A stretch of DNA of 12,469 nucleotides from a virus (taxonomy: Duplodnaviria; Heunggongvirae; Uroviricota; Caudoviricetes). The stretch lies in the IMG/VR virus record IMGVR_UViG_2663763280_000001; one strand, 5' to 3'. Numbering within the stretch: position 1 is the first letter of the stretch; each line of letters opens with the position of its first letter. This document shows positions 1 to 12,469 of this stretch, in pieces. The notes under the pieces were generated by a model. The model had not been told where the DNA came from and made no database searches. It was given only the letters and a program-made list of their open reading frames with translations. The position numbers and the translations under genes were made by a program.

Positions 1-103
1 AGGTCTGATGGTGTTTGGTGTGGTGGATTTCCATGGTCTGCTTATCGAAGTGCGGTTCCAGGGCATCGTAAGCATACGGCAGGGATGGCAGGGTATAGCT
101 CAT
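1..103 (-). CDS. sodA: Mn superoxide dismutase, N-terminal 34 codons (partial; continues beyond window start)
   Basis: Minus-strand ATG at 103..101 preceded by GGAG at 113..110. Translation [34 protein letters not shown] matches the SodA N-terminus as I remember it, including the His-rich Fe/Mn-SOD motif. Confidence 0.85.
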
Positions 104-217
104 ATTCATCTCCAGTATTGTCGGGCGGCCGATTGTTAATGCCGCGTAAGCAGTTGGTTCATTATAGTTAATTAAATGATATTGAAAATGATTATCAATG
201 CCGTACTTTTCGTAAGG
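104..217 (-). promoter_or_regulatory. sodA 5' region: SD GGAG (113..110), -10 TATAAT (166..161), Fur-box-like AT-rich dyad (about 175..196)
   Basis: Minus strand reads ...GATAATCATTTTCAATATCATTTAATTAACTATAATGAACC...GGAGATGAATATG. The TATAAT and the GATAAT-rich dyad are seen directly; assigning them to the sodA promoter and Fur site is from memory. Confidence 0.6.
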
Positions 218-913
218 CACCTGCTGGCTGCCGAACTGTTCCGAGTCCACCTGCACGCCGACCAGTGCCGTGTTCGGGTAGCACTGTTTCACATCGATGA
301 TTTCGGTGTATGACGACCAGAGCGTTTTGTTCTGCAGCTGGTCTGTGGTGCTGTCCGGCGTCATTCTGCGCATCCGGATATTAAACGGGCGCGGCGGCAG
401 GTTATCCACCAACACCGAGGCCAGATACTGCGAGGTGGTTTTGCCCTTAATGGTGATGTCTTTTTCCGTCACCCAGCCACCATTACGCTGTATCTGAACC
501 AGCAGGCGAACTTCCGACGGATTCCAGTCCCCCTTTGAGGTGGTTTCCACCAGTGCCTGCACACCGAAGGTAAAGCGCAGTCGGTCGATGTTTGCCGACG
601 TGATGGCGCGGGTGATCGGCGTGTCGTATTTCACTTCCGTACCCAACACCGTCTCGGAGCCGGAGGATTCAAATCCCTCCGGCGGAGTCTGCTCCTGCTC
701 ACCAGCCCGGAACACCACCGTGACACCGGCGATGTTGGTATTCCCATCACTGTCCAGCACCGACGTACTGTTCAGCAGCACGCTTTTTAATCCATCCACC
801 GGACCTTCAATCGGCCCTTCACTGATGGCATCAATCACACTCAGCAACTGCGTGGACTTCAGGTTGTCCTTCGCTTCGCGCGGGGTATGCCCCTTACTGC
901 TTCCTTTACCCAT
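218..913 (-). pseudogene. J: Tail tip / central fibre protein J, N-terminal 232 codons only (lambda J is about 1132 aa)
   Basis: ATG at 913..911 with AGGA upstream. Translation [49 protein letters not shown]...QFGSQQV follows the lambda J N-terminus, then changes abruptly to sodA upstream sequence after codon 232. Confidence 0.85.
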
Positions 914-935
914 TCCTCACGCTCCATAAACGACA

Positions 936-955
936 AAACCGCCCGCAGGCGGTTT
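936..955 (-). terminator. Perfect 8-bp stem / 4-nt loop hairpin in the I-J intergenic spacer (AAACCGCC-xxxx-GGCGGTTT), U-rich 3' side on the minus strand
   Basis: Inverted repeat seen directly between the I stop (976..974) and the J start (913). Function not established. Confidence 0.3.
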
Positions 956-973
956 CACATAAAACATTTTGCA

Positions 974-1645
974 TCAGCGACCAATCACCACAACCTGACC
1001 ACCGTCCCCTTCGTCTGCCGTGCTGATCTCCTGAGAAACCACGCGTGACCCCACGCGCATTTCCCCGTACAGAACAGGCAGAACATTGCCCTGGGCAACC
1101 ATGTTATCCAGTGAGGAGAAATAGGTGTTCTGCTTACCGTTATCCGTTGTCTGTGTACGGGGAGTTCTGGCTTTCGGTGCCAGCATCTGCGCCACACCAC
1201 CGAGCACCATACTGGCACCGAGAGAAAACAGGATGCCGGTCATACCACCGGCCCCAATGGCTGCCCCCCATGCTGCAAGGGTGGCTCCGGCGGTAAAGAA
1301 TGATCCGGCAATGGCGGCAGCCCCCAGGACAATCTGGAATACGCCACCTGACTTGGCCCCGGCGACTCTGGGAACAATATGAATCACAGCGCCATCAGGC
1401 AGAGTCTCATGTAACTGCGCCGTTAACCCGGACGTGCTGACGTCCCGCCCGGCAATCCGTACCTGATACCAGCCGTCGCTCAGTTTCTGACGAAACGCCG
1501 GGAGCTGTGTGGCCAGTGCCCGGATGGCTTCAGCCCCCGTTTTCACACGAAGGTCGATGCGGCGACCAAATCGTTGTAAATCCCCGTAAAGGCAGATGCG
1601 CGCCATGCCCGGTGACGCCAGAGGGAGTGTGTGCGTCGCTGCCAT
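974..1645 (-). CDS. I: Tail tip assembly protein I (223 aa)
   Basis: ATG at 1645..1643, stop at 976..974; 223 aa as in lambda I; overlaps the K 3' end by 103 nt as in lambda. Confidence 0.92.
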   Translation of the reverse strand: MAATHTLPLASPGMARICLYGDLQRFGRRIDLRVKTGAEAIRALATQLPAFRQKLSDGWYQVRIAGRDVSTSGLTAQLHETLPDGAVIHIVPRVAGAKSGGVFQIVLGAAAIAGSFFTAGATLAAWGAAIGAGGMTGILFSLGASMVLGGVAQMLAPKARTPRTQTTDNGKQNTYFSSLDNMVAQGNVLPVLYGEMRVGSRVVSQEISTADEGDGGQVVVIGR

Positions 1646-2286
1646 TTGTCGGTGTACCTCTCTCGTTTGCTCAGTTGTTCAGGAATATGGTGCAGCAGCT
1701 CGCCGTCGCCGCAGTAAATTGCGGCGTGATTCGGCACCGATGAACCAAAACAGCACAGCAGCACATCGCCCGGCTGTGCCGCTGACAACGGCACCTGATA
1801 CAGCCCTGTGGCCTCCAGATTATCCAGATAGAGATTCTGGCCGTTACGCCACCAGTCATCCTCACGATGAAAGGCCGGCATCTCAATCCCCGCCAGATGA
1901 TAAGCATCCCGGAACAGTGTGTAACAGTCCGTCACACCGTGCTCAAAGCGCCGCCCGGTGAGATGCGGCACACAGCGGAACTTATGAATCGTCCCCCGGC
2001 AGACCAGCCACCACGGCAAATCACTCTGCACCTGCAGCCGCCGGTCGGCCTCACTCAGCCAGGGCAGACCACCGGGGTGGCTGTGGACCAGCGCCACAAT
2101 CTCACCCTGCATTTCTGCCTGCAGCCAGTCTTCCGGCGACATACGGAAATACGCCTCCGGCTCACCGGAGATATTCACGCAGGGGAAATATCTTTCCCCC
2201 TCCGGCGTGCTTACCACGAAGCCGCACGACTCCGCTGGCGCACATCGCCGGGCGTGCGCCAGAATCGCTGATTCTGTCTGTGTCAT
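1543..2286 (-). CDS. K: Tail tip assembly protein K, JAMM/MPN plus NlpC/P60-type. Open frame is 247 aa from the ATG at 2286; the canonical 199-aa lambda start corresponds to the ATG at 2142
   Basis: Frame is open from the ATG at 2286 (5 nt after the L stop) to the stop at 1545..1543. An internal ATG at 2142 has GGAGG 11 nt upstream. JAMM motif HSHPGGLPWLSEAD is seen directly. Confidence 0.85.
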   Translation of the reverse strand: MTQTESAILAHARRCAPAESCGFVVSTPEGERYFPCVNISGEPEAYFRMSPEDWLQAEMQGEIVALVHSHPGGLPWLSEADRRLQVQSDLPWWLVCRGTIHKFRCVPHLTGRRFEHGVTDCYTLFRDAYHLAGIEMPAFHREDDWWRNGQNLYLDNLEATGLYQVPLSAAQPGDVLLCCFGSSVPNHAAIYCGDGELLHHIPEQLSKRERYTDKWQRRTHSLWRHRAWRASAFTGIYNDLVAASTFV

Positions 2287-2291
2287 GGGAT

Positions 2292-2990
2292 TTACTGCGA
2301 AAGTTTGTTAATGGAAAGGAAGCCGCCAAAGTTGCCGACGTTATTGCGGAACTTACAACCGCTCAGGCATTTGCTGCATTTATCCTTCGTGATATCGGAC
2401 GTTGGCTGGTCATATTCATCCGCGACAGCCGGACCGCTATAACCGCACTCGTCACCGCGATAGGTCCAGGTGCAGGTGTTGGCCAGCATGATACGTCCCG
2501 GAAAAACAGCGCCATCCGTTTCCGTCGGCGTGGACAGTACAAAGGAGGCACTCACCGCGCTCAGTTCGCTGCACTGCTCAATGCGCCAGCGGCTGATCAC
2601 CTCCTGCTCCGGATCGGCGCCACTGTTTCCGTTGACGAAGTTCACCGCATCCAGAAAACGGGCGTAAACCTTACGCCGGACCACCGTTCCACCGACCAGA
2701 CTCTGCAGATCTTCCGCCATCCCGGTGACCATACCGTACAGGTTAGAAACCGTCAGTGTGGGGCGCGTACTGGTGCCTTTGCCATTCAGTTCAAAACCAC
2801 TCCCCTGAATGGGATACGGCTGATACTGTCGCCCCTGCCAGGTGACCGGCTCACCTTTTTCGTTCTGCTCATTACAGAAAAAATAACGTTCTCCACCGAC
2901 CTCTGTCAGGTCGATTTCCCAGAGCACCACGCTGGCCGACTGCTCCGCACGGGTGCATTCATTCAGTGTTTCCTGCCGGATATCCTGCAT
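2292..2990 (-). CDS. L: Minor tail protein L (232 aa)
   Basis: ATG at 2990..2988 overlaps the M stop (ATGA); stop TAA at 2294..2292; length and sequence as lambda L. Confidence 0.92.
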   Translation of the reverse strand: MQDIRQETLNECTRAEQSASVVLWEIDLTEVGGERYFFCNEQNEKGEPVTWQGRQYQPYPIQGSGFELNGKGTSTRPTLTVSNLYGMVTGMAEDLQSLVGGTVVRRKVYARFLDAVNFVNGNSGADPEQEVISRWRIEQCSELSAVSASFVLSTPTETDGAVFPGRIMLANTCTWTYRGDECGYSGPAVADEYDQPTSDITKDKCSKCLSGCKFRNNVGNFGGFLSINKLSQ

Positions 2991-3319
2991 CAGTTCACCA
3001 CCTGTTCAAACTCTGCGCTGAACTCAACACGCAGCATACTGACCCGCGACGACCATTTTGCGCAGGTCACCTTTATCTGCCGCCACTCATAAGGCGGCGT
3101 CCACAGAAAGGCTTTCCAGCCCCCGTGCTCTTCCAGAAACGACTCCAGTACCGTGGCCTCCTCACGGGGGACAGAAAGCGTCACGCTGTACGTTTTCAGG
3201 TTGGCATTCAGCCCGGCAGGCGCTCGCTGGGAATAGCCATCACCAAAGCGCACCTTTCTTACAGAAGGGGCCGAAGCCACATCCATACCGGGTTTCACTT
3301 TCCAGCGGAAGGTTTTCAT
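2990..3319 (-). CDS. M: Minor tail protein M (109 aa)
   Basis: ATG at 3319..3317 overlaps the H stop; 109 aa as lambda M. Confidence 0.92.
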   Translation of the reverse strand: MKTFRWKVKPGMDVASAPSVRKVRFGDGYSQRAPAGLNANLKTYSVTLSVPREEATVLESFLEEHGGWKAFLWTPPYEWRQIKVTCAKWSSRVSMLRVEFSAEFEQVVN

Positions 3320-5895
3320 CGTCCACCTCCGGAGAACAGACCACCATCGCGCATCTGTGCCTGGATTTCATCACGGGCACCCTTGCGGGCCATGTCATAC
3401 ACCGCCTTCATCATCTGTGGACCTGGCAGACCATTCGTACCGTCGTTCTGAATCACCACGTGATTGTTCTGATTAAAATTAATGCCTTCAGCCCGCCGCA
3501 TCTGCGCCGGACTTCCGGCACCGCCCACATAACCACCTTCCGCATAGCCCCGCATCAGGCGGTACAGGTTGCCGACACCAATCCGGCTGGTTGCCTCCTT
3601 CGTGAAGACAAATTCACCACGGTGAACAATCCCCGCTGGCTCATATTTGCCGCCGGTTCCCGTAAATCCCCCGGTCGCAAAATGGAATTTCGCCGCAGCG
3701 GCCTGAATGGCTGTACCGCCTGACGCGGATGCGCCGCCACCAACAGCCCCGCCAATGGCGCTGCCGATACTCCCGACAATCCCCACCATTGCCTGCTTAA
3801 GCAGAATTTCTGTCATCATGGACAGCACGGAGCGGGTGAAGCTGCGCCAGTTCTGTTCACTGCCGGTCAGCATCGCCGCCATATTCTGCGCAATACCATC
3901 AAAGGTCTGCGTGGCTGCACTTTTAACCTGCGACATACTGTCCGTGGCACTCTCTTTCCACTCGCTCCAGCCGGACCTGAGGCCTGCCATCCAGTTCCCG
4001 CGAAGCAGGTCTTCAGCCGCCCAGGTCTTTTTCTGCTCTGACATGACGTTATTCAGCGCCAGAGGATTATCGCCATACTGTTCCTTCAGGCGCTGTTCCG
4101 TGGCTTCCCGTTCTGCCTGCCGGTCAGTCAGCCCCCGGCTTTTCGCATCAATAGCGGCCCGTTTTGCCCGTTGCTGCTGTGCGAATTTATCCGCCTGCTG
4201 CGCCAGCGCGTTCAGGCGCTCCTGATACGTAACCTTGTCGCCAAGTGCAGCCAGCTGGCGTTTGTACTCCAGCGTCTCATCTTTATGCGCCAGCAGGGAT
4301 TTCTCCTGTGCAGACAGCTGGCGACGTTGCGCCGCCTCCTCCAGTACCGCGAACTGACTCTCCGCCTTCCACAAATCCCGGCGCTGCTGGCTGATTTTCT
4401 CATTTGCTCCGGCATGCTTCTCCAGCGTCCGGAGTTCTGCCTGAAGCGTCAGCAGGGCAGCATGAGCACTGTCTTCCTGACGATCGCCCGCAGACACCTT
4501 CACGCCGGACTGTTTCGGCTTTTTCAGCGTCGCTTCATAGTCCTTTTTCGCCGCCGCCATCAGCGTGTTGTAATCTGCCTGCAGAATTTTCCCGTCCTTC
4601 AGTGACTTGTTCAGTTCTTCCTGACGGGCGGTATATTTCTCCAGCGGCGTCTGCAGGCGTTCGTAAGCCTTCTGCGCCTCTTCGGTATATTTCAGCCGTG
4701 ATGCCTCAGACTCGGCCCAGTCCTTTGCTGCCATCTCTCTGGCCTTTTCAAGATCGGCCTGCAACGTGGCGGCTGAAAGCCCAAGTTGCGCATTCGCTCT
4801 CTTCTCCCATGCTCCCCGGAGATTGGCAAGAAATGCTGAGGTTTTACCGCGCCGGTGGCTCCGGCTCTGATACCACTGCCATTTTTTGTCCGCCTCATCA
4901 AAAGCCTTTTCTGCTTTCTCCAGCATTCCCTGGGCAGTGTCCGGGCGACCAATATCCAGCACCGAATCCCACATGGATTTGAATGCCCGTGCTGTCCTGT
5001 CTGCCCAGGTCTCCAGCGTGCCCATGTTCTCTTTCAGGCGGCGGGTCTGGTCATCAAACCCTTTCGTTGCGGCCTCGTTCGCCGCCTGCAATGCCCCGGC
5101 TTCATCTCCGGAACGCTGCAACTGAGCAACATACGCAATCTGCTCCGCCGTCACGTTATGGAACTGACGTGCCATCGCTGTCAGTCCCGACGTCGGGTCT
5201 GTGGTCAGCTTCCCGAAGGCTTCAGCGACCTTGTCCACCTCCACGCCGGATGCAGAGGAGAAACGCGCCACACTCTGGCTGATCGCCTCAAACTGCTCAC
5301 CACCACGCACACCGGCATTCACCAGCGCCGTCAGTGACTCGCTGGTCTGGTTAAACGTCAGCCCTGCCGCCTGCCCGGCTCTGGACAGGACCAGCATACG
5401 ATCTGCCGTCAGTCCCGCCTGATTGCCGGAAAGGACCAGCGTTTTGTTGAAATCGGACAGGGTTGAGTTGCCCTGATACCAGGCATACGCCAGCGCACCG
5501 GTCGCCACCGCCAGCGAGGTGGCCCCCACCATCGGCAGGGTGATCGCACCGGCAAGCCCCCTGAACATGGGGATCATCCCGCCGAAGGAGTCCTTAACCT
5601 GACCACCCTGTTGCAGCAGGATCAGCCACGGGCTTTGCCCGCCTGCAAGCTGCGTGGCCACGTCGGTGAACTGTGCAGGCAGCATACGCATGGCGGCTTT
5701 ATACTGCCCGACGGAAATCCCCGCTTTCTGTGCAGCCAGCGCCTGTCGGCTCAGCGACTGTTCAACGACTGCCGCTGTTTTTTTCGCATCAGTTTCCGTA
5801 CCGGAAAAATGACGCCTGACTCTGGCCATCTGCTCGTCAAATCTGGCCGCATCCAGACTTAAATCAACGACCAGATCGCCTACCGGTTCAGCCAT
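3316..5895 (-). CDS. H: Tail tape measure protein H (859 aa here)
   Basis: ATG at 5895..5893 overlaps the T stop by 8 nt as in lambda. Long, coiled-coil-rich ORF with a Gly-rich C-terminal region, starting MAEPVGDLVVDLSLDAARFDEQ. Confidence 0.92.
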   Translation of the reverse strand: MAEPVGDLVVDLSLDAARFDEQMARVRRHFSGTETDAKKTAAVVEQSLSRQALAAQKAGISVGQYKAAMRMLPAQFTDVATQLAGGQSPWLILLQQGGQVKDSFGGMIPMFRGLAGAITLPMVGATSLAVATGALAYAWYQGNSTLSDFNKTLVLSGNQAGLTADRMLVLSRAGQAAGLTFNQTSESLTALVNAGVRGGEQFEAISQSVARFSSASGVEVDKVAEAFGKLTTDPTSGLTAMARQFHNVTAEQIAYVAQLQRSGDEAGALQAANEAATKGFDDQTRRLKENMGTLETWADRTARAFKSMWDSVLDIGRPDTAQGMLEKAEKAFDEADKKWQWYQSRSHRRGKTSAFLANLRGAWEKRANAQLGLSAATLQADLEKAREMAAKDWAESEASRLKYTEEAQKAYERLQTPLEKYTARQEELNKSLKDGKILQADYNTLMAAAKKDYEATLKKPKQSGVKVSAGDRQEDSAHAALLTLQAELRTLEKHAGANEKISQQRRDLWKAESQFAVLEEAAQRRQLSAQEKSLLAHKDETLEYKRQLAALGDKVTYQERLNALAQQADKFAQQQRAKRAAIDAKSRGLTDRQAEREATEQRLKEQYGDNPLALNNVMSEQKKTWAAEDLLRGNWMAGLRSGWSEWKESATDSMSQVKSAATQTFDGIAQNMAAMLTGSEQNWRSFTRSVLSMMTEILLKQAMVGIVGSIGSAIGGAVGGGASASGGTAIQAAAAKFHFATGGFTGTGGKYEPAGIVHRGEFVFTKEATSRIGVGNLYRLMRGYAEGGYVGGAGSPAQMRRAEGINFNQNNHVVIQNDGTNGLPGPQMMKAVYDMARKGARDEIQAQMRDGGLFSGGGR

Positions 5896-6322
5896 ACCGG
5901 ACTCCTCCTGCGATCCCTTCTGATACTGTCATCAGCATTACGTCATCCTCCGTCATGTCCGCCACATCCGGGGAAGCGGGGATAACTTCATTCCCGTCCG
6001 GGCCAAAACGAACGCCTCCGGCAAGCCCTGCCGCTTTCTGCATCAGCACATCATCTTCAGGCTCTTCGTCAGCCTCGCGCCGGTTCAGCAGACTGAAATC
6101 CAGCGGATGCATCTCCGGATCGCTGAAAAACAGGCTGAGCACGGTGTACGTCAGCCCGGAAAAGTGCATATCCAGCAGAACATCATGAAAATAATGGGTA
6201 CTGTAAAAGCGGTGCCAGTCGGCATACTCCGTGGATGACATCCCGGCAAGCATGGCGCGCCAGTCGGGTCGCCCCATCTCACGCGCCAGTTTCAGGGCAA
6301 AACTCAGCTCACCGTCGAACAC
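5888..6322 (-). CDS. T: T segment of the G-T tail assembly chaperone, expressed only as a G-T fusion by -1 frameshift (no independent start)
   Basis: Open frame in the -1 frame relative to G, beginning at the slippery site and ending at TGA 5890..5888; product ...FDGELSFALKLAREMGRPDW... as lambda gpT. Confidence 0.85.
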   Translation of the reverse strand: MFDGELSFALKLAREMGRPDWRAMLAGMSSTEYADWHRFYSTHYFHDVLLDMHFSGLTYTVLSLFFSDPEMHPLDFSLLNRREADEEPEDDVLMQKAAGLAGGVRFGPDGNEVIPASPDVADMTEDDVMLMTVSEGIAGGVRYG

Positions 6323-6726
6323 TTTCCCGCAGAAACAGGCTCTGCAGGCCCGGCGTCCTCTGCCTGTTCAGGAGCATCATTCACCACAAACTCATACATA
6401 CCGGACAGCCGGTACACCACGTTTTCAGCATGAGAAATTGCCTCTGTGGGCCAGGTGGTAAGCACTTCCTGCTCAATCTGTTTAACGGCTTCATTCATGG
6501 AAGGCAGCTTTGTCTTCTTCGGATGGTTATGCCACAGGGACATCGCCACCAGAAACGCGCCGGTTCTGATGGCGTCTTCCACAGTAAACTTCCGGTTGCT
6601 GTCTGACTCCGCCTGTTCTGCCTGCCGTTTCATCAGGGCGAGATGCTCAATACGCTGCAGGGCTGACAGTTCAGAAAGCGTGACGGTCACACCGTTATGT
6701 TCAAATGATTCGGTTTTCAGGAACAT
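6304..6726 (-). CDS. G: Tail assembly chaperone G (140 aa)
   Basis: ATG at 6726..6724, stop TGA at 6306..6304; C-terminus ...PAEPVSAGKCSTVS as lambda gpG. Confidence 0.92.
   Translation of the reverse strand: MFLKTESFEHNGVTVTLSELSALQRIEHLALMKRQAEQAESDSNRKFTVEDAIRTGAFLVAMSLWHNHPKKTKLPSMNEAVKQIEQEVLTTWPTEAISHAENVVYRLSGMYEFVVNDAPEQAEDAGPAEPVSAGKCSTVS
6322..6328 (-). promoter_or_regulatory. Programmed -1 ribosomal frameshift slippery heptamer G GGA AAG joining G to T
   Basis: Minus-strand GGGAAAG at 6328..6322 sits at the Gly-Lys codons 6 codons before the G stop; the -1 frame continues into the T reading frame. Confidence 0.8.
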
Positions 6727-6741
6727 CGCTGACTCTCCGGA

Positions 6742-7482
6742 TTAACTGGCGGTGACGTTGATTTCTGCAACCGCAGCAAACTCACCATTACCGGATACGA
6801 CCGGAATGTTGACCTTGCCTGCAGCAACACCTTTCACGGTGATGGTCATACCACTGACCGACACGGTGGCTTTTGTTTTATCCGCAGACACCGCACGGAA
6901 GCTCTTGTCGGTTGCGCCATCCGGCTGGAATGCCACGGTCAGCGTGGTGCTCTGCCCTTTCACTACGGAAGCACTGGCGGGTGTCACCGTCATGCCGGTT
7001 GTCGCCGTCACCGTGCTGCGATCTTCTGCCATCGACGGACGTCCCACATTGGTGACCTTCACCGTGCGGGTAATCACTTCCTTCGCCGTCACCGCCTTAC
7101 CGATACTGCTGACCCAGCCACGGAACACATCGACCGTGCCGTTCGGGAAGCGGATTTTATAGGCACGGGTATCGCCTTCATTAAACCACGCCAGCAGCGC
7201 CTGCTGCCCCTGCTCTCCGGGCATCCACGCCAGCGTGAAGCTGGTATCTCCAGCAGATTTCTGCCCCTGCCCGGTCGCAGTCCAGTCTGCATCTTCATCA
7301 TCGAGATAGCTGTCGTCATAAGACTCAGCGGTCAGTTCGCCGGGCGTCAGGTCTTTAACTTTTGCCAGACGCGACCAGTCAACGTCTGAAAGCGGATTCG
7401 CATAAGGGTCACCACTCCCCTTATAAACCCACAGGGTGGTCCCGGCCCCTTTCACCGGCATTACAGGATTTGGTACAGGCAT
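6742..7482 (-). CDS. V: Major tail tube protein V (246 aa) with C-terminal Ig-like domain
   Basis: ATG at 7482..7480 with GAGGA upstream; starts MPVPNP...; C-terminal about 90 aa rich in T/V/S, consistent with an Ig-like fold. Confidence 0.92.
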
Positions 7483-7489
7483 AGCGTCC

Positions 7490-7885
7490 TCACATTTCAT
7501 AGGTAATGACATAAGTCAGATCGGCTGAACTCCACAGGCCCGCATCATCGTCGCGCCGATAGTCATAGCCGCTGGTCACCATACTGGTGATCAAATCTGA
7601 CAGTGCCGGGATATCACTCATCACCGGATAAATCCGGGACTCCATCCACGCATCCAGCTCTGAATCCGGCACCTGAGCAGGCAGGAAAACTTCAATATGC
7701 AGCTCCGCCTGCCAGGTATCGCTGTCCAGCTCTTCGCCCGTGTATTCAGCGCCGGTGAGATAAACGGCAATTGCCGGAAAATCTTCCTCATCAAAAACAG
7801 CGGGGCGACCATCAAAAAGCGTCGCCCCGGTGTCATGCTTCTCCAGTGCATCCAGTACGGCTGCTCGGAGTTCAGTATGTTTCAT
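7490..7885 (-). CDS. U: Tail tube terminator protein U (131 aa)
   Basis: ATG at 7885..7883 overlaps the Z stop (ATGA); 131 aa as lambda U. Confidence 0.92.
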
Positions 7886-8460
7886 CGCTTTATTACCATC
7901 CTCAGTTGATGCTGCAGCGCATAGCCCAGCTCTTTCGGAAGACGCTCACGCCGTATCCGCTCAATATTCTGTTTAAACGCCGTGGTCAGCGGCACCGCCA
8001 TCGGGATTTTCACCACATCAATGGGGTAACGATTTTTCCCGGCCACACGCTGCATGACATGCCAGCGGCCATTTTTCAGTTGCTGAATAAACGCGCCGGG
8101 AATACGACGGTTTCCCACCACAAGCACGCTGCCGCCACCTTTCAGGGCTGAACGCTGCCCCTTTTTACGACGCCTGCGTCGGGACAGGACAATCCGCGCG
8201 TTACCCAGCTTTATTACGGGCAAATCCCCCCGGTTAACCTTGATTCTGGCCTGCGGATTTTTGACCGTGGCCCTTTTCAGCCTGGCCCTTTCCTTTACCA
8301 GTTTCCGGCGTACCTTTGTCTCACGGGCAACCTGTGACGCCGACTGCGATATCGCGGATGAAGCAACGCGGTTAATGGCCATTGCGGCGGCACCGGGCAC
8401 CGCCGTTCTGCTGATACGGCTGAGGTTTTCAACGGCCTGCTCAAGACCTTTTATGGCCAT
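7882..8460 (-). CDS. Z: Tail completion protein Z (192 aa)
   Basis: ATG at 8460..8458; 192 aa; basic Arg/Lys-rich middle region as lambda Z. Confidence 0.92.
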   Translation of the reverse strand: MAIKGLEQAVENLSRISRTAVPGAAAMAINRVASSAISQSASQVARETKVRRKLVKERARLKRATVKNPQARIKVNRGDLPVIKLGNARIVLSRRRRRKKGQRSALKGGGSVLVVGNRRIPGAFIQQLKNGRWHVMQRVAGKNRYPIDVVKIPMAVPLTTAFKQNIERIRRERLPKELGYALQHQLRMVIKR

Positions 8461-8471
8461 ACATCCCCCTT

Positions 8472-8825
8472 TCAGCGGCGACGGTTAACGGCAGGCGGTA
8501 CGCCCCGCCCAAGCCAGAGATGACAGCTTCCGCCATCATCTGGCGAAATCCGGTCTATCCAGAAGTTTTCCTCACCGATGGTCAGCGTGTCGCCGCGCCG
8601 CAGCTGCCGCACATCATCAGTCCGGACAAACAGGGACGGGCTGGAGCCTTCAACGCGCACGCCCTGTCCGGCATAGCTGATATTTTCAGGGTCATCAAAA
8701 ACACCACGTATCACAGCACCGGACTGCTCACCGGATGTCATGGTGGCTGACGTTCCCATGTACCCGCGTATCGTTTCATCGGCGCGGGCAATGGCAGCAT
8801 CGAACAGGTTATCGAAATCAGCCAC
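8472..8825 (-). CDS. FII: Head-tail joining protein FII (117 aa)
   Basis: Start codon here is GTG (8825..8823) with GGGAGG 5 nt upstream; product MADFDNLFDAAIARADETIRGY... as lambda FII. Confidence 0.9.
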   Translation of the reverse strand: MADFDNLFDAAIARADETIRGYMGTSATMTSGEQSGAVIRGVFDDPENISYAGQGVRVEGSSPSLFVRTDDVRQLRRGDTLTIGEENFWIDRISPDDGGSCHLWLGRGVPPAVNRRR

Positions 8826-8836
8826 AGCGCCTCCCG

Positions 8837-9232
8837 TTATTGCATTCTGGCCAGGCCGCGCTCTGTCATTTCAGCTGCCACACCGGCAGAGACACGGAAC
8901 GCCGTTCCCGGCAGCACAAATGCCACAGGCTCATCCCGCGTGGCGTGAAGTGCATCAGTATGCAGCGTCACCAGTGCCACGACCGTGACCAGAGCAGCCG
9001 TATCAATCACGGTATCCGGCTGCGCTGATACCACCTCATTTTCATGTCCGGTCAGCGCATTTTCCGGGCTGACAGATGTGTCCTGACCGGCAGCGTCATC
9101 CGTGTCATCAAGCTCCTCTTCCAGCTCTGCCACACGGAGCACCAGTTCTTCTTTCGTCCCCGTCAGGCTGACATCACGGTTCAGTTGCTCACCCAGCACC
9201 TGAAGACGGGCAATCAGTTCATCTTTCGTCAT
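8837..9232 (-). CDS. FI: DNA-packaging / head completion protein FI (131 aa here)
   Basis: ATG at 9232..9230 preceded by GGAGGAG; product MTKDELIARL... ending ...EMTERGLARMQ. Confidence 0.9.
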   Translation of the reverse strand: MTKDELIARLQVLGEQLNRDVSLTGTKEELVLRVAELEEELDDTDDAAGQDTSVSPENALTGHENEVVSAQPDTVIDTAALVTVVALVTLHTDALHATRDEPVAFVLPGTAFRVSAGVAAEMTERGLARMQ

Positions 9233-9253
9233 GGACTCCTCCACAGAGAGAAA

Positions 9254-9271
9254 ATGGCCCCGAAGGGCCAT
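9254..9271 (-). terminator. Terminator-like hairpin between E and FI: 7-bp stem ATGGCCC/GGGCCAT with UUCG tetraloop, followed by UUUCUCUCU
   Basis: Minus strand reads TAA-TC-ATGGCCC-TTCG-GGGCCAT-TTTCTCTCTG-TGGAGGAG-TCC-ATG; seen directly in the 41-nt spacer. Confidence 0.4.
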
Positions 9272-9273
9272 GA

Positions 9274-10299
9274 TTACGCCAGTTGTACGGACACGAACGC
9301 ATCAGGGTCAGCCAGCAGCATCAGCGGTGCTGACTGAATCATGGTGAACTCACGCGCCGGATCGCCGGTGGTCACCCAGTTTTTCGGGTAGCGGGCAGAG
9401 GCGTTAATACCTTCGCGCTGTGCGTCCGCATCCTGAATGCAGCCATAGGTGCGCAGACCGCGTGCCTGAGTGTTCCCCAGCACCATCGTGTTGTCCGGCA
9501 GGAAGTTCTTTTTGACGTCGTTTTCCACGTACTGTCCGGAATACACGACGATCGCCGTATCGCCATACATCCCCTTATAGGACACCGCTTCGCCCAGGTC
9601 TTTTACCGCTGTCTCCAGCTCGGAATTAGAGCCGCGACGGGTATCCAGCTTCTCCTTGACGGCTTTGAAGGAACGGAACAGCGCCCAGCCTTTCGGATCA
9701 AACACGATGATATTCACCACACCGCTGGCGTTCAGCGCGTAGGCTTCGATATCGTCGGTCGGGTCATACGTGGACTTGTCACGCTTGCTCCACTCCGTAC
9801 CGCCGGACTGTGTGATGTTGTTCGCCGCACTGCGGCCCATATCCACCTCAACCGGATCGAAGGCTTCACCGGTCATGGTGTATTTGCCCTTAAGCACAGC
9901 AGAAACTGCCTGCATCTCTTCGACCTGAGCAATGGCCAGCTCTTCGTCTCGCATGTTCTGCATGATGATGCGACGGCGGCGGTAAGCCGGGTCCGCCAGA
10001 TTCTGCGGATCTTCATCCGGCAGGCGACGCAGGGTCATCTGCGGATTCACCTCATGCTTGGGTTTGACATATCCCGGCGTAAATTCAGAGGTGGAGCCGC
10101 CACGGGAACGGATAACCTCACCGGAAACAATCGGCGAAACGTACAGCGCCATGTTTACCAGTCCCGGAATTTGTGAGAGATAGACTTTCTCCGTGGTGAA
10201 GGGATAGCTCTCACGGAAAAAGAGACGCAGAAACAGCGGATCAAACTTAAATTTCTGCTCATTTGCCGCCAGCAGCTGGGCGGTTGTGTACATCGACAT
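9274..10299 (-). CDS. E: Major capsid protein E (341 aa)
   Basis: ATG at 10299..10297 (MSMYTTAQLLAANEQKFKFDP...), stop TAA at 9276..9274; 341 aa as lambda gpE. Confidence 0.93.
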   Translation of the reverse strand: MSMYTTAQLLAANEQKFKFDPLFLRLFFRESYPFTTEKVYLSQIPGLVNMALYVSPIVSGEVIRSRGGSTSEFTPGYVKPKHEVNPQMTLRRLPDEDPQNLADPAYRRRRIIMQNMRDEELAIAQVEEMQAVSAVLKGKYTMTGEAFDPVEVDMGRSAANNITQSGGTEWSKRDKSTYDPTDDIEAYALNASGVVNIIVFDPKGWALFRSFKAVKEKLDTRRGSNSELETAVKDLGEAVSYKGMYGDTAIVVYSGQYVENDVKKNFLPDNTMVLGNTQARGLRTYGCIQDADAQREGINASARYPKNWVTTGDPAREFTMIQSAPLMLLADPDAFVSVQLA

Positions 10300-10312
10300 A
10301 AAAAAATCCCGT

Positions 10313-10337
10313 AAAAAAAGCCGCACAGGCGGCCTTT
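10313..10337 (-). terminator. Intrinsic-terminator-like element between D and E: GC hairpin (GCCGC-CTGT-GCGGC) followed by T7
   Basis: Minus strand reads ...AAAGGCCGCCTGTGCGGCTTTTTTTACGGGATTTTTTTATATG(E); stem-loop plus U-tract seen directly. Confidence 0.4.
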
Positions 10338-10354
10338 AGTGATGAAGGGTAAGG

Positions 10355-10687
10355 TTAAACGATGCTGATTGCCGTTCCGGCAAACGCGGTCCGTTTTTTC
10401 GTCTCGTCGCTGGCAGCCTCCGGCCAGAGCACATCCTCATAACGGAACGTGCCGGACTTGTAGAACGTCAGCGTGGTGCTGGTCTGGTCAGCATCAACCG
10501 CCAGAATGCCAACGGCAGTACCGTCGGTGGTGCCATCCCACGCAACCAGCTTACGGGTGGAGGTGTCCAGCATCAGCGGGGTCATTGCAGGCGCTTTCGC
10601 ACTCAATCCGCCGGGCGCGGTTGCCGTATGTGCCGGGTCACTGTTGCCCAGCGGCTGGTAATGGGTAAAGGTTTCTTTGCTCGTCAT
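10355..10687 (-). CDS. D: Capsid decoration protein D (110 aa)
   Basis: ATG at 10687..10685 ([27 protein letters not shown]...), stop TAA at 10357..10355. Confidence 0.93.
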
Positions 10688-10696
10688 AAACATCCC

Positions 10697-11302
10697 TTAC
10701 ACTGGTGTGTTCAGCAAATCGTTAACGGCATCAGATGCCGGGTTACCTGCAGCCAGTGGTGCCGGTGCCCCCTGCATCAGACGATCCAGCGCAGTGTCAC
10801 TGCGCGCCTGTGCACTCTGTGGTGCAGCTGCCAGAATGCGGCGGGCCGTTTCCACGGTCATACCGGGGGTTTCGGCCAGCACACGTGCCTGTTCTTCGCG
10901 TCCGTGAGCTTCCTCACAGTTGAGGATCCCCATAATGCGGCTGTTTTCTGCCGCAACCGCAGCGGTGATCTGCGCGTTCACGTCCGGCTGCGCCGCGCTG
11001 GCGTTTTCGCCCTCCGTCGCTTGCACCACGTCAGTAACGTCAGCCTGCGAAGCAGTGGCTGAAACAGTTGTTGATTGAGTCTCTTTGGTCATTCGCCCTC
11101 CTGAGAGACGGGATTTACGTGCATCCAGTGCATCACGCATAACGGTGATCGCATCGGTGCTGTTGACAAGTTCATCAGCCAGTCCGGCATCAATGGCCTC
11201 CTGACCGCTGTACATTGCAGCCTCGGTATCCAGCACAGCCTGCACGGACAGGCCGGTATATGCCGACACCTTCTGCGCAAACATCCGGCGGGTTGCATCC
11301 AT
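10697..11302 (-). CDS. Nu3: Capsid scaffolding protein Nu3, in-frame internal start within C (C codon 239), co-terminal with C
   Basis: Internal ATG at 11302..11300 (MDATRRMFAQKV...) in the C frame, giving 201 aa; the nested arrangement is known for lambda. Confidence 0.75.
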   Translation of the reverse strand: MDATRRMFAQKVSAYTGLSVQAVLDTEAAMYSGQEAIDAGLADELVNSTDAITVMRDALDARKSRLSGGRMTKETQSTTVSATASQADVTDVVQATEGENASAAQPDVNAQITAAVAAENSRIMGILNCEEAHGREEQARVLAETPGMTVETARRILAAAPQSAQARSDTALDRLMQGAPAPLAAGNPASDAVNDLLNTPV

Positions 11303-12016
11303 CCGGGACTGCAGTGTCTCCCGGACATCACCCGGTAGATGGCTGTAGGGGTTGCCATCCACCTTATGGCTGCCGCTGTAAATCAGCGTGATTTCCACGC
11401 CCTGTTTCTCCAGCGCAGCGCCGTAATTACTGTGAGCCATCATGACGCCGATGGAGCCTGTCCGGGCGGTCTGCGTGACCAGACGCCGGGAGGCGGCGCT
11501 GGCAAGCAGCTGACCTGCACTGCAGTTCATGTCGTTGGCCAGCGCCCATACCGGCTTTATGTCACGCACACGGGCGATGATGTCAGCACAGTCAAATGCT
11601 CCCGCCACCATCCCGCCCGGTGTGTCCATATCGAGCAGAATGCCGTCCACCATCGGATCGCTGGCAGCCTGTTGCAGACGAGCGATAATGCCGTTGTAAC
11701 CGGTCATTCCCGAATACGGCTGCAGCGCCCGCGTCCGGCTGACCAGCGTACCGGACACCGGCAGCACGGCGATGCCGTTCATGACCTGATAACTGCGGGC
11801 CTGTCGTGGTCCGTCATCATCACCGGATAACGCCAGCGCCGCGGGTGCCTCTCCGGCAGTCAGGCTATCGCCGGATACTGCATCCGTCAGGCGACTGATC
11901 CCAAGCTGGCCTGCAAGCGCACAAAAGAAAACCCGCGCATAGGCGGGTTCAAGCATCAGCGGCTCATTAAAAGCCATGCTGGCAATATGCGGGAGATTAC
12001 GCAGCTCTGCTGTCAC
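10697..12016 (-). CDS. C: Capsid assembly protease / minor capsid protein C, S49 (SppA-like) family (439 aa)
   Basis: GTG start at 12016..12014 with GGAGGAG upstream, overlapping the end of B by 20 nt as in lambda; product MTAELRNLPHIASMAFNEPLMLEP... Confidence 0.9.
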   Translation of the reverse strand: MTAELRNLPHIASMAFNEPLMLEPAYARVFFCALAGQLGISRLTDAVSGDSLTAGEAPAALALSGDDDGPRQARSYQVMNGIAVLPVSGTLVSRTRALQPYSGMTGYNGIIARLQQAASDPMVDGILLDMDTPGGMVAGAFDCADIIARVRDIKPVWALANDMNCSAGQLLASAASRRLVTQTARTGSIGVMMAHSNYGAALEKQGVEITLIYSGSHKVDGNPYSHLPGDVRETLQSRMDATRRMFAQKVSAYTGLSVQAVLDTEAAMYSGQEAIDAGLADELVNSTDAITVMRDALDARKSRLSGGRMTKETQSTTVSATASQADVTDVVQATEGENASAAQPDVNAQITAAVAAENSRIMGILNCEEAHGREEQARVLAETPGMTVETARRILAAAPQSAQARSDTALDRLMQGAPAPLAAGNPASDAVNDLLNTPV

Positions 12017-12209
12017 TCTTCTCCTCCTCTGTTGATTGTCGCAGTCCGGATTCAAATGCCGCAGCCGCCCAGGCGGGCGGTTTAAGACCGGCTGCACGGC
12101 GCTCCATCGTTTCACGGACCTGCTGGGCAAAAATTTCCTGATAGTCGTCACCGCGTTTCGCGCACTCTTTCTCGTAGGTGCTCAGTCCGGCTTCTATCAG
12201 CATCACAGC
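11997..12209 (-). pseudogene. B: Portal protein B, C-terminal ~71 codons only; 5' part of the gene replaced by unrelated DNA
   Basis: ...AVMLIEAGLSTYEKECAKRGDDYQEIFAQQVRETMERRAAGLKPPAWAAAAFESGLRQSTEEEKSDSRAA-stop matches the lambda portal C-terminus as I remember it. Upstream the frame loses resemblance and hits an in-frame TGA (12395..12393). Confidence 0.8.
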
Positions 12210-12469
12210 AACAAAGTCACGCTTAAAACACAGGAGCATCTCGATCGCTGCCTCACTTGCCGCAATTGTGAAACCACCTGTCCTTCTGGTGTGCGCTATC
12301 ACAATTTGCTGGATATCGGGCGTGATATTGTCGAGCAGAAAGTGAAACGCCCACTGCCGGAGCGAATGCTGCGCGAAGGATTGCCAGATCTTTCAGGGTC
12401 GCCAGCGCGCCATGTTCTGCCATCTGCCGTTATCTCCTGGGTTATGACACTGTCGGGAAAATACGCTCC
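12210..12469 (+). pseudogene. glcF: Internal fragment of a GlcF-like (glycolate oxidase Fe-S subunit family) gene; no start in view, runs off the window end
   Basis: Plus-strand frame reads NKVTLKTQEHLDRCLTCRNCETTCPSGVRYHNLLDIGRDIVEQKVKRPLPERMLREG..., with a canonical 4Fe-4S C-x2-C-x2-C-x3-C-P motif at 12249..12284. Assignment to glcF is from memory, not a search. Confidence 0.55.

Follow-up and report, generated by a model that had tools for sequence, protein, structure and literature searches.

A draft Escherichia coli contig that joins a lambda-like prophage block to fragments of sodA, glcF and fliJ/fliI is very probably chimeric

The window analysed here, 12,469 bp in length, is the entire contig CCCB01000120.1 of the draft E. 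coli assembly GCA_000945835.1. The mosaic is present in the deposited sequence and consists of four parts that meet at three junctions: the start of sodA with its upstream region, a lambda-type head-tail block, an internal fragment of glcF, and a short piece covering the adjoining ends of fliJ and fliI. The initial annotation, which was made from the sequence alone, had described a three-part chimera with two joins; the mosaic itself is borne out, while the count of parts fell short because the fliJ/fliI piece at 12382–12469 was overlooked. Since the window is the entire contig, the host pieces lie only at contig ends, where they form tails of 217 nt on the left and 263 nt on the right, each about one read length. 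The chromosomal loci of the host pieces are approximately 1.0 and 1.2 Mb apart (for example at 2.09, 3.11, and 4.35 Mb in NZ_CP025916.1). A search for literature on the WGS prefix CCCB01 and on the assembly accession returned no relevant paper.

The left end features sodA, as the initial annotation had proposed. The first 34 codons of the gene are found on the minus strand at 1–103, with the ATG at 103 and the reading frame running off the contig end, and are followed by 114 nt of the sodA upstream region at 104–217. The whole of 1–217 is 100% identical to E. coli genomes, and the start of the gene is also supported by its translation. The upstream region includes a promoter-like site, of which the first hexamer is at 188 and the second hexamer ends at 161. 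Parent-by-parent alignment places junction 1 at 217/218, where the sodA upstream region abuts codon 232 of the phage gene J with 0 nt of shared sequence. As assembled, the J frame is open across the sodA upstream region and into sodA, which gives a 304-aa J'-SodA reading frame. Exact protein look-ups of this frame, with or without X at the suspect codons described below, gave no match.

The phage portion is a lambda-type head-tail block of 11,989 bp located on the minus strand at 218–12206, which extends from the 3' end of the portal gene to the first 232 codons of J. Genes were assigned by mapping the RefSeq annotation of the matching prophage into window coordinates, together with Pfam families on the gene calls of the contig itself. 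The portal gene B is represented by its last 69 codons and stop (11997–12206), the remainder of the gene being missing. It is followed in the direction of transcription by the S49 protease/scaffold C-Nu3 (10697–12016), the decoration protein D (10355–10687), the major capsid protein E (9274–10299), and FI (8837–9232). The next genes are FII (8472–8825), for which the GTG start reported in the initial annotation was confirmed, Z (7882–8460), U (7490–7885), and V (6742–7482). The tail assembly chaperones G (6304–6726) and T (5888–6322) overlap, and the end of the overlap features the lambda-type slippery site GGGAAAG at 6322–6328 on the minus strand, a programmed −1 frameshift site. The block continues with the 859-aa tape measure protein H (3316–5895) and the tail-tip genes M (2990–3319), L (2292–2990), K (1543–2286), and I (974–1546), and ends with the first 232 of about 1,159 codons of the tail-tip protein J (218–913). 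The genes are thus a collinear structural module of a lambda-type siphovirus, and the module is incomplete, with both the portal gene and J cut mid-gene. Terminase, cos, lysis, replication, and tail-fibre genes were not found in the window, in agreement with the earlier statement that packaging, replication, lysis, and tail-fibre functions are missing.

Comparison of the block with other genomes revealed that it is identical, except at 4 positions over 11,989 bp, to prophages of strains JNEC-KY180 (NZ_AP045177.1) and N1286 (NZ_CP178401.1), the prophage of JNEC-KY180 being located at ydfJ/Qin. These prophages share the order B'-C/Nu3-D-E-FI-FII-Z-U-V-G/T-H-M-L-K-I-J' and the G/T slippery site with the window. 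They differ in that the window holds only a fragment: the contig departs from the prophage at either end, which severs the portal gene and J and accounts for the missing terminase, tail fibre, lysis, and immunity regions. Identity to Lambda-like phages is 96.5–98%, and the proposal that the block comes from a natural lambda-like prophage, not from laboratory lambda, holds. Away from the ends there are two differences from the closest relatives, at 1040 and 7252, both of which are synonymous. The remaining two discrepancies, at 412 and 526, are positions where the window has A and all relatives have C or G, and they would change conserved residues of J. Both lie less than 530 nt from the left end and both are A, like the proven N placeholders at the other end of the block; on this resemblance they are probably N placeholders as well. 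The 11,989-bp stretch is a real and correctly assembled part of a resident lambda-like prophage. The 68-aa portal tail, tail protein I, and the tape measure protein are common in protein collections (159, 23,755, and 639 blocks, respectively).

The right tail of 263 nt is itself a double chimera, composed of 177 nt of glcF and then 88 nt of fliJ/fliI. Alignment to E. coli genomes identified the first piece as an internal glcF fragment (glcF nt 182–358) on the plus strand at 12208–12384. It has one apparent mismatch, at 12213, and the deposited record has N at this position. The earlier description of the right end as a glcF-like internal fragment is therefore correct for 12208–12384 and incorrect for 12382–12469, which is the fliJ/fliI piece. 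This piece is on the minus strand, has 100% identity to its parent, and runs off the contig end; it includes the first 42 nt of fliJ (12382–12423), an 18-nt intergenic spacer, and the last 28 nt of fliI (12442–12469). Parent-by-parent alignment shows that glcF and fliJ meet at junction 3 (12382–12384), where 3 nt (TGC) are common to both parents. An artefactual 56-aa ORF on the minus strand (12253–12423) fuses FliJ residues 1–14 to antisense glcF across this junction; it forms a singleton cluster among about 15 billion proteins and is encoded only by CCCB01000120.1. Exact protein look-ups of two other junction ORFs, of 101 and 80 aa, gave no match, and in the case of the 80-aa ORF this is because the deposited record has Ns there (residues 9–11).

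All of the 5,426 complete E. coli genomes carry the individual pieces, and none of them (0/5,426) spans any of the three junctions, junction 1 included. Additionally, a 36-mer over junction 1 and a 35-mer over junction 3 had no match in the viral, metagenome, and species-representative genome collections. The k-mer search for junction 2 covered the viral collection only and used an A-substituted pattern that could not match a record holding N. The junctions are thus without a copy in any independent genome, as judged from the complete E. coli genomes for all three and from the collections for junctions 1 and 3, and the foreign segments, of 217 and 263 nt, are about one read long and confined to the contig ends. 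The initial annotation had noted that the joins lack mobile-element ends, and this was upheld: no att, cos, IS ends, target duplications, or tRNA were found at the joins, and no repeat family or inverted pair was found at 217/218, 12206/7, or 12384/5. Rearrangement mediated by an IS or transposon was rejected on the lack of terminal inverted repeats and target-site duplications at the joins, and integration at a tRNA or att site was rejected on the lack of both features. Joining at restriction sites or by proximity ligation was rejected because neither GATC nor any other site is duplicated at the junctions. An Rfam search of the window returned no match.

The most informative clue is located at junction 2, between the phage block and glcF, and was concealed in the supplied window. 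Parent-by-parent alignment and the deposited record show that the record reads N GC NN C N at 12207–12213. Over 2253–12469 it contains exactly four Ns, at 12207, 12210, 12211, and 12213, and the supplied window writes A at each of these positions, a replacement that makes false SNPs. The Ns in 12207–12213 coincide precisely with the 4 mismatches between phage (C, T, T, C) and glcF (G, A, A, G), and the three positions common to both parents (GC and C) have normal base calls. The chance of such a placement is about 1 in 10^14. Since the Ns fall exactly on parent mismatches, conflicting reads were merged at junction 2, and the base evidence is in conflict there in the manner of an assembly or sequencing chimera; shared sequence at this junction is not scorable. 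Two populations of reads must have covered junction 2 to give this pattern of Ns, and the pattern alone would look the same whether one of them came from a chimeric artefact or from a rearrangement truly present in a minority of the culture.

These results very probably mean that chimeric reads or mis-joins lengthened a genuine prophage contig, so that the mosaic is an artefact of sequencing or assembly and not a structure of the bacterium. Unrelated E. coli sequence, roughly a read length of it, would have been added to each end of the prophage contig. These additions may stem from chimeric library molecules, produced when fragments ligate to each other or a polymerase switches template, or from the erroneous merging of tiny contigs. 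At the phage/glcF join, a genuine-phage read and a glcF read would have been overlaid, and the consensus caller would have put N where they disagreed. From these features we infer the kind of library error and a low read support at the contig ends. Known chimeric contigs and reads in draft assemblies resemble the window in having junctions restricted to one record, end tails of read length, ambiguity calls at parent-discordant positions, and little or no shared sequence. They differ in that the right tail of the window has two junctions within 263 nt, and a good library would rarely yield a triple chimera in one such tail. The host pieces are also co-oriented and keep their chromosomal order, a coincidence of about 1 in 8 that is not predicted by purely random ligation of the three pieces. 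Two specific types of chimera were rejected: a De Bruijn repeat collapse, as the 0–3 nt of shared sequence are far below any k, and an MDA-type chimera, as the pieces share one orientation and lie about 1 Mb from each other instead of being inverted and local.

A variant in which four contigs (217, 11,989, 177, and 88 nt) were brought together after assembly by a scaffolder, by a gap-closer, or by hand, with their ends overlaid and no gap Ns between them, is possible rather than probable; it is in practice a sub-case of the chimeric contig, and its likelihood is counted within the one given to that reading. In its favor, the 7-nt zone of junction 2 resembles two overlaid ends in which mismatches became N, the parents at junction 3 overlap by exactly 3 nt, and those at junction 1 abut flush. 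However, contigs as short as 88 and 177 nt seldom stand alone when they come from unique genes, and assemblies normally leave them out; common scaffolders mark a join with a run of N or a single n instead of superimposing ends that do not match. It is unlikely that the joins are genuine and formed in vivo, perhaps in only some of the cultured cells, by illegitimate, microhomology-poor joining such as alternative end-joining or serial template switching in break-induced replication. Papers such as PMC11297215 and PMC4872102 document alternative end-joining in E. coli after double-strand breaks. The products of such illegitimate recombination are like the window in sharing 0–3 nt at the joins, which would also fit template switching, and in linking unrelated loci. 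The collinearity of the co-oriented host pieces with the chromosome and the J' frame that happens to remain open into sodA are further points in favor of in vivo joining. The joins in the window are nevertheless without recurrence, having been seen in a single contig from a single draft assembly. From the Ns at junction 2 it follows that the reads of the same data also included phage sequence that had not been rearranged. The contig ends at most one read length past the junctions, yet sodA and fliI are unique and a real join would assemble through. Moreover, a deletion-type reading that runs from sodA to glcF to fliJ removes about 2 Mb. On the E. coli K-12 map such a deletion would take oriC and many essential genes, so that the implied chromosome would be without oriC. 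It is more doubtful still that some or all of the cultured cells repaired a double-strand break by capturing sodA, glcF, and fliJ/fliI pieces beside a 12-kb prophage segment, in a chromothripsis-like multi-fragment end-joining.

Of the four origins that the initial annotation had listed, only the assembly artefact is favored by the whole-contig window, the unique junctions, and the Ns. It is scarcely credible that the contig was engineered, that it is a specialised transducing phage, or that it is what nested deletions left of a decayed prophage. These readings draw on the presence of a phage structural block with host DNA on both sides, as in specialised transducing lambda and defective prophage remnants, where phage late genes adjoin host DNA, and on a sodA promoter and gene start that are kept and co-oriented with the phage late genes. 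A lambda vector is contradicted by the near-identity of the block to the wild ydfJ/Qin prophages and its lower identity to Lambda-like phages, and neither cos nor att, marker, vector, or recombineering scar accompanies the block. Aberrant excision gives DNA contiguous with attB, and one hybrid att junction and cos belong to the same pattern; all of these are missing from the window, in which the host DNA consists of three unrelated snippets from distant loci, with pieces as short as 177 and 88 nt, and essential structural genes are truncated at both ends. Prophage decay is also opposed by the comparison of related genomes. A prophage between collinear glc and sodA loci, which the initial annotation had named as the arrangement that would point to simple decay, was looked for and was absent from all related genomes compared.

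Under the chimeric-contig reading, CCCB01000120.1 should not be cited in support of transduction, prophage decay, or a fusion protein of J with SodA or of FliJ, and the junction ORFs of 56 and 80 aa that appear in protein collections are artefacts. The main value of the finding is in quality control. If the joins were true, against the evidence, they would represent multi-fragment capture in E. coli break repair and would be of moderate interest for the DNA repair field.

The window is a mosaic of four parts with three joins. The whole window was queried by megablast against 5,426 complete E. coli genomes. All 5,426 match some part of it, and the only region matched as a single piece is 218-12206/12209, which is 100.0% identical to prophages of the E. 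coli strains JNEC-KY180 (NZ_AP045177.1) and N1286 (NZ_CP178401.1). The window ends were queried separately. Annotation and 100% identity to E. coli genomes place the start of sodA and its upstream region at 1-217. On the right, a 177-nt internal piece of glcF (12208-12384, from genome matches and annotation) is followed by 88 nt at 12382-12469, matched at 100% identity, that consist of the first 42 nt of fliJ, an 18-nt spacer and the last 28 nt of fliI. The initial annotation described a three-part chimera; the mosaic is present in the deposited sequence, and the fliJ/fliI piece had been overlooked. Base-by-base alignment to each parent, the intact phage or host sequence, places junction 1 (sodA upstream region to phage gene J) at 217/218 with 0 shared bases, junction 2 (phage to glcF) at 12206/12207-12208, and junction 3 (glcF to fliJ) at 12382-12384, where TGC is common to both parents. 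A search of the window associated no tRNA, Rfam family, IS-like terminal repeat or target duplication with the joins.

The phage block was assigned by mapping the RefSeq annotation of the identical prophage onto the window, and Pfam matches of the contig's own gene calls agree with it. The genes all lie on the minus strand and follow the order portal B (last 69 codons), C/Nu3 (S49 peptidase), D, E, FI, FII, Z, U, V, the G/T tail chaperones, H, M, L, K, I and the first 232 codons of the tail-tip gene J (J'). FII (8472-8825) has the GTG start noted earlier, and the G/T overlap carries the slippery heptamer GGGAAAG (6322-6328), the lambda-type -1 frameshift heptamer, at the location expected in this phage family. 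Its identity to Lambda-like phages is 96.5-98% and the block matches wild prophages, in agreement with its reading as a natural lambda-like prophage rather than laboratory lambda; genes for packaging, lysis, replication and fibres are indeed missing from it. In JNEC-KY180 the corresponding block is part of a prophage that is complete and located at ydfJ/Qin. One of the few matches on a record other than a main chromosome is the 115-kb NZ_CP159531.1 of E. coli ZYS9073 (32992-44980, 99.9% identity); this record may represent a phage-plasmid, excised prophage or unplaced piece, and the ZYS9073 chromosome has a copy at 99.2% identity. In many NCBI assemblies with megabase-size contigs, lambda-like portal, terminase, capsid and tape measure genes are each broken up into a number of short calls, as would be expected if indel errors had been left uncorrected. 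Such splitting is why the 68-aa C-terminal piece of the portal protein is listed as a gene of its own in 159 blocks.

Junction 2 carries a trace of conflicting reads. Over record positions 2253-12469, the deposited record has N at 12207, 12210, 12211 and 12213 only, and the window has A at all four. At these positions phage and glcF read C/G, T/A, T/A and C/G, respectively, and the parents agree at 12208 (G), 12209 (C) and 12212 (C), which the record calls normally. The Ns are thus exactly the four parent-discordant positions of 12207-12213, a pattern with a chance of ~1 in 10^14 for four randomly placed Ns. Since the Ns match the phage-glcF differences, the consensus here was drawn from two sets of reads that disagreed: one ran on in genuine phage past junction 2 and the other carried glcF. 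What first looked like an "untemplated A" at 12207 and a glcF "SNP" unique to the window at 12213 were rejected as products of N-to-A substitution. The window also has A at 412 and 526, both less than 530 nt from the left end, where every relative has C/G, including three loci otherwise identical over 218-1300. These would alter conserved J residues (R130W, V168L) and probably also stand for Ns.

The fliJ start codon opens a 56-aa ORF of FliJ residues 1-14 followed by antisense glcF. Its product is a singleton cluster among ~15 billion proteins and is encoded on one contig only, CCCB01000120.1 of the NCBI draft assembly GCA_000945835.1. This contig is 12,469 bp, as is the window, so the window represents the contig in full. 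Non-phage DNA forms its two ends, a left tail of 217 nt and a right tail of 263 nt, both about the size of a single sequencing read. Assemblies of E. coli, Klebsiella and Salmonella include hundreds of contigs with the exact 34-aa SodA fragment or similar ones of 29-50 aa; by a rough estimate, such a number would be expected if contigs broke at random in millions of assemblies. None of the 5,426 complete E. coli genomes has a junction-spanning match, and k-mers of junctions 1 and 3 were not found in IMG/VR, JGI metagenomes or GTDB species-representative genomes. The k-mer uniqueness rests on these two junctions; the junction 2 query was A-substituted, covered the viral collection only and does not count.

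A contig-end chimera is very probably the best explanation. The prophage segment was assembled correctly, and both ends would then have been extended by chimeric reads or, alternatively, by the erroneous joining of very small contigs, with the consensus-conflict Ns marking one of the joins. The analysis shows the boundaries of the pieces, the identity of the contig, the unique junctions and the N pattern directly; we infer the type of library error, along with low read support at the ends. Assembly artefact was among the candidates of the initial annotation, and the N conflict, the terminal tails and the unique junctions favor it. The same annotation also proposed a defective transducing-type element. 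Host DNA acquired by aberrant excision of a prophage or by specialised transduction would be contiguous with the attachment site and not consist of 88-217-nt snippets from three distant genes; cos or att would also be retained, and neither is present in the window. An engineered strain is disfavored, as no vector, marker or scar was found and the block is that of wild prophages.

Rearrangement of the chromosome was also weighed. The sodA, glcF and fliJ/fliI pieces share one orientation and keep the order of the chromosome, a ~1-in-8 coincidence; NZ_CP025916.1, for example, has them at 2.09, 3.11 and 4.35 Mb, each on the strand that the window shows. A deletion-type reading of the host joins would lose ~2 Mb. 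On the E. coli K-12 map oriC lies between sodA and glcF, so that such a deletion would include oriC and cannot give a simple viable chromosome. In vivo end-joining or template switching may have occurred in a minority of cells, and alternative end-joining is described for E. coli (PMC11297215, PMC4872102); against this, the contig breaks off within a read length of each join despite the unique sequence of sodA and fliI, and some reads at junction 2 evidently came from phage DNA that was not rearranged. The J' frame meets no stop codon in the 114 nt upstream of sodA and enters sodA in frame (2-913, minus strand), giving an ORF of 304 codons, 232 of them J', that runs off the contig end. The chance expectation is ~5%, and the open frame most likely arose by coincidence when the chimera formed.

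The mosaic is real as deposited sequence, corrected to four parts, and the substitution of A for N in the window yields false SNPs, false amino-acid changes and failed exact protein and k-mer look-ups.
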